NCBI RefSeq assembly: GCF_013167455.1
Contig: NZ_CP038328.1
Strand: one strand, 5' to 3'
Length of the DNA stretch: 64,000 bases
Origin: Escherichia coli O157:H7
Lineage (GTDB): Bacteria > Pseudomonadota > Gammaproteobacteria > Enterobacterales > Enterobacteriaceae
Position numbers: made by a program. Positions 61,701-64,000 of the stretch are shown here, one piece after another; within the stretch, counting starts at the first letter, position 1, and each line of letters begins with the position of its first letter.

Positions 61701-64000
61701 TGATTAAATCCACCCTGTCGCGAAAAATGGCCTGCGTTATTGCCAGACGTAATAAAACCTTTGATTAACGTTACTCATACTGATAGCACCTTCATGTACC
61801 TCTCTTTTTTACGAAAAATTAAAAGAGCTAACTAAGGTCATAATTCGCATGAATCATTAACCATTTGTTATTTTCAACATTATTTTTACATTAAGCAGAG
61901 ATGAATTGCAGTGAAATTCGACTTAAATCTTATGAAATGCATTTACTCATGGCTAAAACCACGTCACAAAAATGCAAATTAGAAGTAGATCACAATTATC
62001 TCAATACATTAAATCAAGTTAATTTTAAAAATTTAACACTCATGACATTAGTTGACATAACACACTGAATTAACATGGAAATTTAAAAACACACTTCAAA
62101 CAATCATTTCCCGAAAGACATTTTGAAAATAGATCAATTGCAACATTACGGTCAGATAAAGACACTCCTGTGATATTAAACCTGTGCCGTTATGAACGGC
62201 CATAAATACGACGTGTGTAACTTATTTTACTCTCTGTCTTACAAAGGATTACCCATGAAGAAAGCAACACTTGTGATTGGCGTTATTGGCGCGGACTGCC
62301 ATGCAGTAGGCAATAAAGTTCTGGACCGCGTTTTTAGCAACCACGACTTCAGAGTCATTAATCTGGGCGTAATGGTCAGCCAGGACGAATATATTGATGC
62401 TGCCATTGAAACTGGCGCTGACGCGATTGTCGTCTCCTCTATCTATGGGCATGGCGATATCGACTGTCTGGGCATGCGCGAACGCTGCATCGAGCGTGGA
62501 CTGGGGGACATCCTGCTCTATGTGGGCGGTAACCTGGTGGTCGGAAAACATGACTTCGCTGACGTGGAAACCAAATTCAAAGAGATGGGATTTGATCGCG
62601 TCTTTGCCCCAAGTCATGACTTAGAAGATGTTTGCCAGCTGATGGCCCACGATATCAACCAACGTCATGACGTTGATACTCGTATTCTTGAAGAGGCTAT
62701 CTGATGCAAATCGTCTCTGTCGATATTGGATCGACGTGGACCAAAGCAGCCCTCTTTACCCGGGAGGGGGACGCGTTAACGTTGGTTAACCACGTACTGA
62801 CCCCAACCACCACCCATCATCTGGCGAAGGGGTTTTTCTCCAGCCTGAACCAGGTGTTAAACGTAGATAATGCCCTCCCCCTGTTAAACAGCGGTGAGGT
62901 TGCATTGAAGTATTCCTCCTCTGCCAAAGGTGGGCTGGCGGTTGCCGCAATGGGATTGGTGCCTTCTATCACCCTGGAAACCGCGAAAGTAACCGCTCAC
63001 TCTGCGGGTGCTAAAATTGCGCAATATTACGCCTACAAGCTGAACCGCCGTGATATCCAGGCACTGGAAGAAACGCAGCCCGATATTCTCTTGTTCACCG
63101 GCGGCACCGACGGCGGAGAAGAAAGCTACGGACTGAATAACGCCCGTGTGCTGGCAGAATCCAAACTCGACTGCGCCATTATTTATGCCGGAAACCGGGA
63201 TATTCAGGACGAGGTGCAGGAGATCCTCGGGCATAAAGACCTGACCATTGTCGACAACGTTCTGCCCGATCTTGACCATCCGAACCCTGTAGCTGCACGC
63301 CAGGCTATTTGCGACATATTCCTTAAACGCATCGTTAAAGGGAAAGGGCTGGATGTCATTGTTGATAAAACAGGCGAAGAACCAATGCCGACACCATGGA
63401 CGGTCTTTGAACTGGTCAAGGCAATCAGTAACGTCGATCACAGCTGGAAAGAGTTCATGCTGATCGACATGGGCGGCGCAACCACCGATGTTTATTCCGC
63501 CTGTGCCAACACGCTCTCGCCCGACACCGTTTTACACGGCGTACCGGAACCCTTCGTAAAACGGACGGTGGAAGGCGATCTGGGAATGCGCGTCTCGGCA
63601 GTGGTGGTTGGTGAAAGTGCGAAAGAGTTAGTCAATGTGAATTTTGCTCAGCAACCCGCACAGCTGGACGCTTTTTATCATTACCTCCGTCATCTAGTCG
63701 CTCATCCCGACTACTTACCCGCAAATGCAGAAGAGAAATATTTCGATACCGTCCTGGCCGGACTGTGTGTGGGTTATGCCACCGAAAGACATGCGGGCAC
63801 CAAAAAAGAGGTCTGCACCTGCGTCGGCAATGTCGATTTACAGATGGGACGTGACCTGACAACCGTGCGTAAAGTCGTCGGATCCGGCGGATGGCTCTCG
63901 CGTGCCAGTCAGTTCGATATGCATCACTGGTTGAAATACCGCGAGTTAAACGACGACGGTAAACGCATTCTCTTACCGACCGAATTTGAATATTACCGCG

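Follow-up and report, generated by a model that had tools for sequence, protein, structure and literature searches.

The stretch of DNA considered here (the window) comprises 64,000 nucleotides of Escherichia coli O157:H7 (contig NZ_CP038328.1). The features in its last part are given below with their coordinates and strand.

57885..59456, minus strand: cydA (cytochrome bd-I subunit I), so annotated in identical genomes; belongs to the core genome and borders the island
59457..59829, no strand: cydA upstream/regulatory region; common to K-12 but diverged (80.8% identity, query positions 1-373 only)
60259..61203, plus strand: hypothetical ORF, 314 aa, GC 38%; part of the island in E. coli, outside the conserved pathway block
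61285..61707, plus strand: hypothetical ORF, 140 aa, GC 36%; part of the island in E. coli, outside the conserved pathway block
61708..62254, no strand: non-coding region upstream of glmS, 547 nt, 32% GC; presumed promoter/regulatory region
62255..62704, plus strand: glmS, predicted glutamate (methylaspartate) mutase S (sigma) subunit, the coenzyme-B12-binding component; 149 aa, complete
62704..64000, plus strand: glmL (mutL), predicted glutamate mutase accessory protein with an actin-like ATPase fold; residues 1-432 of 462, the gene being cut by the window end

Genes at the end of the window

The glmS reading frame starts at 62255 (ATG, preceded by AAGGA at a distance of 8 nt) and extends over 149 codons to 62704 (ORF list and raw sequence). 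Its product reaches 253 bits against the NCBIfam equivalog NF002612 (methylaspartate mutase subunit S, cut-off 110) and 247 bits against TIGR01501 (an equivalog of the same name, cut-off 136), and the Pfam B12-binding domain PF02310 is found in it. The crystal structure of Clostridium cochlearium GlmS (1i9c_A) is matched with 61% identity over 124 residues (E=1e-49). The first and last elements of the base-off/His-on cobalamin signature (DxHxxG...SxL...GG) are exact, as D14-C-H16-A-V-G19 and G91-G92; the middle element, aligned to 1i9c_A, is S61-S-I63, a conservative L-to-I change with respect to SxL. The protein is assigned as the S subunit of glutamate (methylaspartate) mutase, and its B12 dependence is predicted by homology.

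The start of glmL overlaps the stop of glmS (TGATG) at 62704, and 432 codons follow without a stop up to the last base of the window; the full-length gene in identical genomes has 1389 nt. The GlmL protein matches Pfam MutL (447 bits), TIGR01319 (GlmL family, 849 bits) and the equivalog NF040745 (methylaspartate mutase accessory protein GlmL), the last with 488 bits against a cut-off of 475 without the 30 C-terminal residues. It contains the phosphate-binding motifs of actin-like ATPases (D7-I-G-S-T and D255-M-G-G-A-T-T-D). In identical O157:H7 genomes glmL is located between glmS and glmE, an order also observed in equivalent clusters of Yersinia enterocolitica and two other contigs (L009-L011). 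GlmL has been described as a reactivating chaperone of glutamate mutase (Kronen & Berg 2015, PMC4682846), and the protein encoded here is classified by homology as the accessory protein of this mutase with a putative ATPase/reactivase role.

RefSeq labels on DNA identical to this stretch are also glmS and glmL. The sequence-only reading had recognized a B12-binding small subunit and a GlmL-like ATPase at 62255-64000. The ORFs reproduce these coordinates exactly, and the NCBIfam equivalogs confirm both identities, with an ATPase function predicted from the motifs.

The pathway beyond the window

Among the pathway genes of the island, the window includes glmS and most of glmL only; the genes past 64000 were read from other O157:H7 genomes, which are 99.8-100% identical to the window over the overlap. 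Positions 61700-64000 recur with 100% identity in many O157:H7 chromosomes. Strain 86-24 matches the window with 99.97% identity over 1-49970 and with 99.8% over 50670-64000, the latter segment including one gap.

This similarity also characterizes the remaining part of the window. Through the 99.97% identity to 86-24, the region from 1 to ~24200 is seen to start inside a lambdoid prophage (tail, capsid, terminase, lysis, Q, nin, bet/exo), which carries a gene for an LpxR-family lipid A deacylase; in 86-24 its integrase is annotated as frameshifted, and ybhC is its neighbor. The tolA gene (~53400-54600) differs in length between near-identical O157:H7 genomes (1185 nt in 86-24, 1422 nt in TR01).

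Downstream of glmL, glmE, mal, the genes of an AtuA-family protein and a DUF4387 protein, a GltP-like gene, fumD, cobO and a convergent LysR gene follow in this order, and then sucD is located. GlmE is identified by TIGR01503 (866 bits) and PDB 6h9e_B (E=3e-189), methylaspartate ammonia-lyase by TIGR01502 (541 bits, cut-off 286) together with Pfam MAAL_N and MAAL_C, the class I fumarate hydratase FumD by the equivalog NF011921 (1280 bits) and CobO by TIGR00708; the symporter gene is GltP/DctA-like. The expectation that the remaining pathway genes would lie beyond the window is thereby borne out by glmE, mal, the cmlAB-like pair (discussed below), the gltP-like gene, fumD and cobO in genomes identical over 61700-64000; a downstream region encoding something other than the pathway, which would have spoken against it, is not what these genomes contain.

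From glmS to the DUF4387 gene, starts and stops overlap or are at most 18 nt apart, which suggests that glmS...cmlB form a single operon. The six-gene block B12-binding/MutL/Met_asp_mut_E/MAAL/AtuA/DUF4387 is syntenic in Y. enterocolitica and the two other contigs, where in the latter two the CmlA homologues are 62-64% identical. A functional link of the six genes is independently supported by this conserved synteny.

The fate of citramalate depends on the AtuA-family/DUF4387 gene pair, located 3-5 kb past the window end. In the work of Kronen and Berg citramalate lyase was not found, and the DUF1446 gene was referred to as a gene of unknown function (PMC4682846). The O157:H7 AtuA-family protein matches the PDB entries 9ERQ/9EVF, "Citramalate lyase, subunit A (cmlA)", with E=1e-291 and 92.1% identity, and the DUF4387 protein matches "subunit B (cmlB)" of the same entries with E=5e-57. 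These chains presumably represent the Raoultella planticola protein. A full-text literature search returned no primary paper on CmlAB, only a 2026 preprint using the enzyme (bioRxiv 10.64898/2026.01.16.699985), in which cmlAB of R. planticola, a gift of I. Berg, was employed and the citramalate-cleaving activity of this CmlAB homologue is described. The CmlAB function in O157:H7 is predicted by homology only, from the names of the PDB deposits and the 92%-identical homologue of one preprint. FumD of O157:H7 is a biochemically characterized mesaconase with a 2-3 fold preference for mesaconate (PMC4682846). As the match to CmlAB supplies the step missing in 2015, the route from glutamate via 3-methylaspartate, mesaconate and (S)-citramalate to pyruvate and acetate (plus NH3) is genetically complete; a transporter and a corrinoid adenosyltransferase are also supplied by the island.

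In the proposed mechanism, glutamate would be taken up, probably through the GltP-like symporter (substrate specificity predicted from similarity). Glutamate mutase, GlmS2E2, an adenosylcobalamin enzyme to which GlmS would contribute the His-on B12-binding domain, could then convert glutamate into (2S,3S)-3-methylaspartate. GlmL presumably spends ATP to restore the inactivated mutase, and CobO would adenosylate salvaged corrinoid. E. coli is not known to synthesize B12 de novo, and exogenous corrinoid would be needed. Subsequently, methylaspartate ammonia-lyase is expected to remove NH3 from methylaspartate with the formation of mesaconate, FumD would hydrate mesaconate to (S)-citramalate, and cleavage of citramalate into pyruvate and acetate could be performed by CmlAB, the AtuA-family/DUF4387 pair. 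The present analysis established which genes these are, how they are ordered, where the island ends and how it is distributed; a role of the LysR-type regulator and a physiological use of the island are putative.

Borders, distribution and expression of the island

The distance between cydA and glmS, which are divergent, is 2.8 kb, with two AT-rich ORFs between them. The sequence-only reading had put the mutase genes next to the cyd locus, which is fair as to the neighborhood but not as to immediate adjacency. Similarity to K-12 stops near 59830, at the left edge of the island; at the sucD side, K-12-like genomes share only ~100 nt after sucD. From the loss of K-12 similarity on both sides, the island extends from ~59830 to ~9.8 kb past the window end, i.e., over ~14 kb.

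The cydA gene and the first ~90 nt upstream of it are identical to K-12, although 59457-59829 is only ~81% identical. In a second genome group, 638 nt of cydA-upstream DNA are common with 90-92% identity. The island border appears to be placed inside the diverged cyd promoter region or to have dragged this region along.

In K-12 MG1655 the sucD-cydA gap is occupied by sdhX, mngR, mngA and mngB, and a single TPR-repeat gene represents a third content of the gap (FDAARGOS_1251). Within E. coli this site varies and can hold at least three different contents: mngRAB, the TPR gene and the ~14-kb island. The absence of the mutase genes from K-12 is confirmed by the mngR-mngA-mngB content of MG1655, and the claim that they mark a non-K-12 lineage agrees with their restricted distribution. 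The glmS-glmL pair was found in 1135 of 5426 complete E. coli genomes (20.9%), a count unchanged between megablast and word-11 blastn. Each of these 1135 genomes carries one chromosomal copy, with an identity of 95% or more throughout. The frequencies given for the cluster by Kronen and Berg are 26.5% in E. coli and 90.6% in O157:H7 (PMC4682846).

Less than 80% of glmS-glmL is present in five of the 1135 carrier genomes, which indicates that the island is decaying in some lineages. In E. coli O127:H6 (EPEC), only a 510-nt piece covering glmS is kept (NZ_LT903847.1, 4109900-4110409).

With high confidence, the window closes with the 5' end of a chromosomal "glutamate fermentation" island of O157:H7, which takes up its last 1.75 kb. 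A literature search for physiological tests of this island yielded only those of Kronen and Berg (PMC4682846). Strain O157:H7 ATCC 700728 did not grow anaerobically on glutamate, was not stimulated by it and displayed no methylaspartase activity, irrespective of whether any of three cobalamin forms was added; expression of the island genes was not detected and could not be induced (PMC4682846). Since the growth and expression tests in O157:H7 were negative, the "capability" of glutamate fermentation claimed from sequence holds as genetic potential only, and the island may be silent or used only under particular conditions.

These observations are also what would be expected if the island were intact but cryptic in O157:H7, i.e., transcriptionally silent and conferring no fermentative growth. 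We consider this possible, though on balance unlikely. Silence could be caused, for example, by H-NS acting through the AT-rich 5' region or by dependence on a host signal acting through the LysR regulator; a pathogenicity-linked signal was raised as a possibility by Kronen and Berg (PMC4682846). Alternatively, the genes could have another role, such as making or removing mesaconate or citramalate, or nitrogen release. The 2.4 kb between the cydA regulatory region and glmS have a GC content of 32-38% versus ~53% for the pathway genes, which favors crypticity and is compatible with xenogeneic silencing, although the latter is only a conjecture from base composition. In the same sense, matches to the sigma-70 promoter consensus upstream of glmS do not exceed shuffled expectation, so that no recognizable promoter stands out above background. 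On the other hand, every pathway ORF is intact, an undamaged LysR gene is found in 86-24 and in the three non-TR01 genomes inspected, the gene block is syntenic across distant taxa, and methylaspartase activity in other enterobacteria is known from earlier work cited by Kronen and Berg (PMC4682846). This is the sole live alternative to the fermentation island, and it bears on physiological use, not on gene identity.

Other features of the upstream region were considered as well. Over 59400-64000 there was no Rfam match to a B12 riboswitch at E<=1, and no stable leader structure is predicted upstream of glmS (fold z-score +0.36 versus shuffles). Conservation with the region upstream of Yersinia glmS (CTGACAATAAATCAATTG) is confined to an 18-nt block at 62123-62140, TTGAAAATAGATCAATTG, ~115 nt upstream of glmS; it is possibly a regulator-binding site, a candidate drawn from two sequences only. 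The ORFs at 60259-61203 and 61285-61707 could not be assigned to a family by Pfam, NCBIfam or PADLOC at a significant level. Both accompany the island in 1134 E. coli genomes and are absent from the equivalent clusters L009-L011. A more specific scheme can be built on these features, in which the island stays silent until a host signal induces it and has a non-fermentative role, and the orphan ORFs and the 547-nt leader form an E. coli-specific control/accessory layer. This scheme is regarded as improbable.

A defect of the regulator was considered as the cause of the published non-expression. In strain TR01 the island LysR gene is annotated as a pseudogene: 40 nt are replaced, in a length-neutral way, creating an internal stop (L001 23080-23119, ~9.4 kb past the window end). 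The replacement sequence has matches at thousands of sites on chromosomes and plasmids of E. coli, and we take it to be the IS1 terminal inverted repeat; an assembly artefact or an unusual scar could account for the change. The junction-spanning 85-mer occurs in one of 20,395 records. As the break is strain-specific and the gene is intact in 86-24 and the three other genomes, a broken LysR gene was rejected as a general explanation.

Two further explanations concern the pathway itself, and both are considered almost certainly wrong. Glutamate mutase and methylaspartase are common to glutamate breakdown and to the haloarchaeal methylaspartate cycle of acetate assimilation via mesaconyl-CoA (PMC4682846), but this cycle is rejected by the gene content: the island encodes the mesaconase FumD and a citramalate lyase homologue, neither mesaconate CoA-transferase nor mesaconyl-CoA hydratase is among its genes, and the CoA route is assigned to haloarchaea only (PMC4682846). 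An origin of the two window proteins from an ornithine 4,5-aminomutase (D-ornithine, OraS/OraE), lysine 5,6-aminomutase or acyl-CoA mutase system is rejected on HMM cut-offs and the adjoining glmE (866 bits), since the B12-binding fold of GlmS matches OraE (45 bits, cut-off 800), lysine aminomutase beta, methylmalonyl-CoA mutase (C-terminal domain, 49 versus 57) and MetH only weakly, and GlmL, which also matches the "GlmL-related ornithine degradation protein" model NF040744, remains below its cut-off (254 versus 600 bits), whereas the cut-offs of the GlmS and GlmL equivalogs are exceeded.

Significance and closest known systems

The island confers the genetic potential for a B12-dependent route from glutamate to pyruvate and acetate on about one fifth of E. 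coli genomes and marks the host as a non-K-12 (O157:H7-type) E. coli. The locus is already known, its cluster having been published in 2015 (PMC4682846), and for this reason the finding is an ordinary one. Structures have since been deposited for the one enzyme that the published locus still lacked; the window contributes nothing biologically new.

The closest known system is the O157:H7 cluster of Kronen and Berg (PLoS One, PMC4682846), which is the same locus with no DNA difference. The legend of Fig. 5 in that paper lists GlmS, MutL/GlmL, GlmE, Mal, the DUF1446 protein, GltP, FumD, CobA/CobO and LTTR. The fate of citramalate was left open in 2015, whereas the pair in question is now labeled citramalate lyase CmlAB (9ERQ/9EVF, 2026 preprint). 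With R. planticola CmlAB, the similarity of the O157:H7 proteins amounts to 92% identity for CmlA and E=5e-57 for CmlB.

The glutamate mutase operon of C. cochlearium and C. tetanomorphum (PDB 1CCW, 1I9C, 1BE1) encodes the same enzyme. The clostridial and window GlmS proteins (61% identity over 124 aa) have the DxHxxG and GG motifs in common and differ in the middle element, S-S-I in E. coli versus S-S-L in clostridia; clostridial GlmE matches O157:H7 GlmE over its full length (E=3e-189). Like the island, the clostridial operon contains an accessory gene between S and E, followed by mal. The subsequent steps are realized differently: clostridia use the two-subunit mesaconase MesAB and a CitDEF-type citramalate lyase (PMC4682846), whereas the island encodes the fused class I fumarase FumD and the unrelated CmlAB. 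Unlike the clostridial operon, the island adds gltP, cobO and a LysR regulator.
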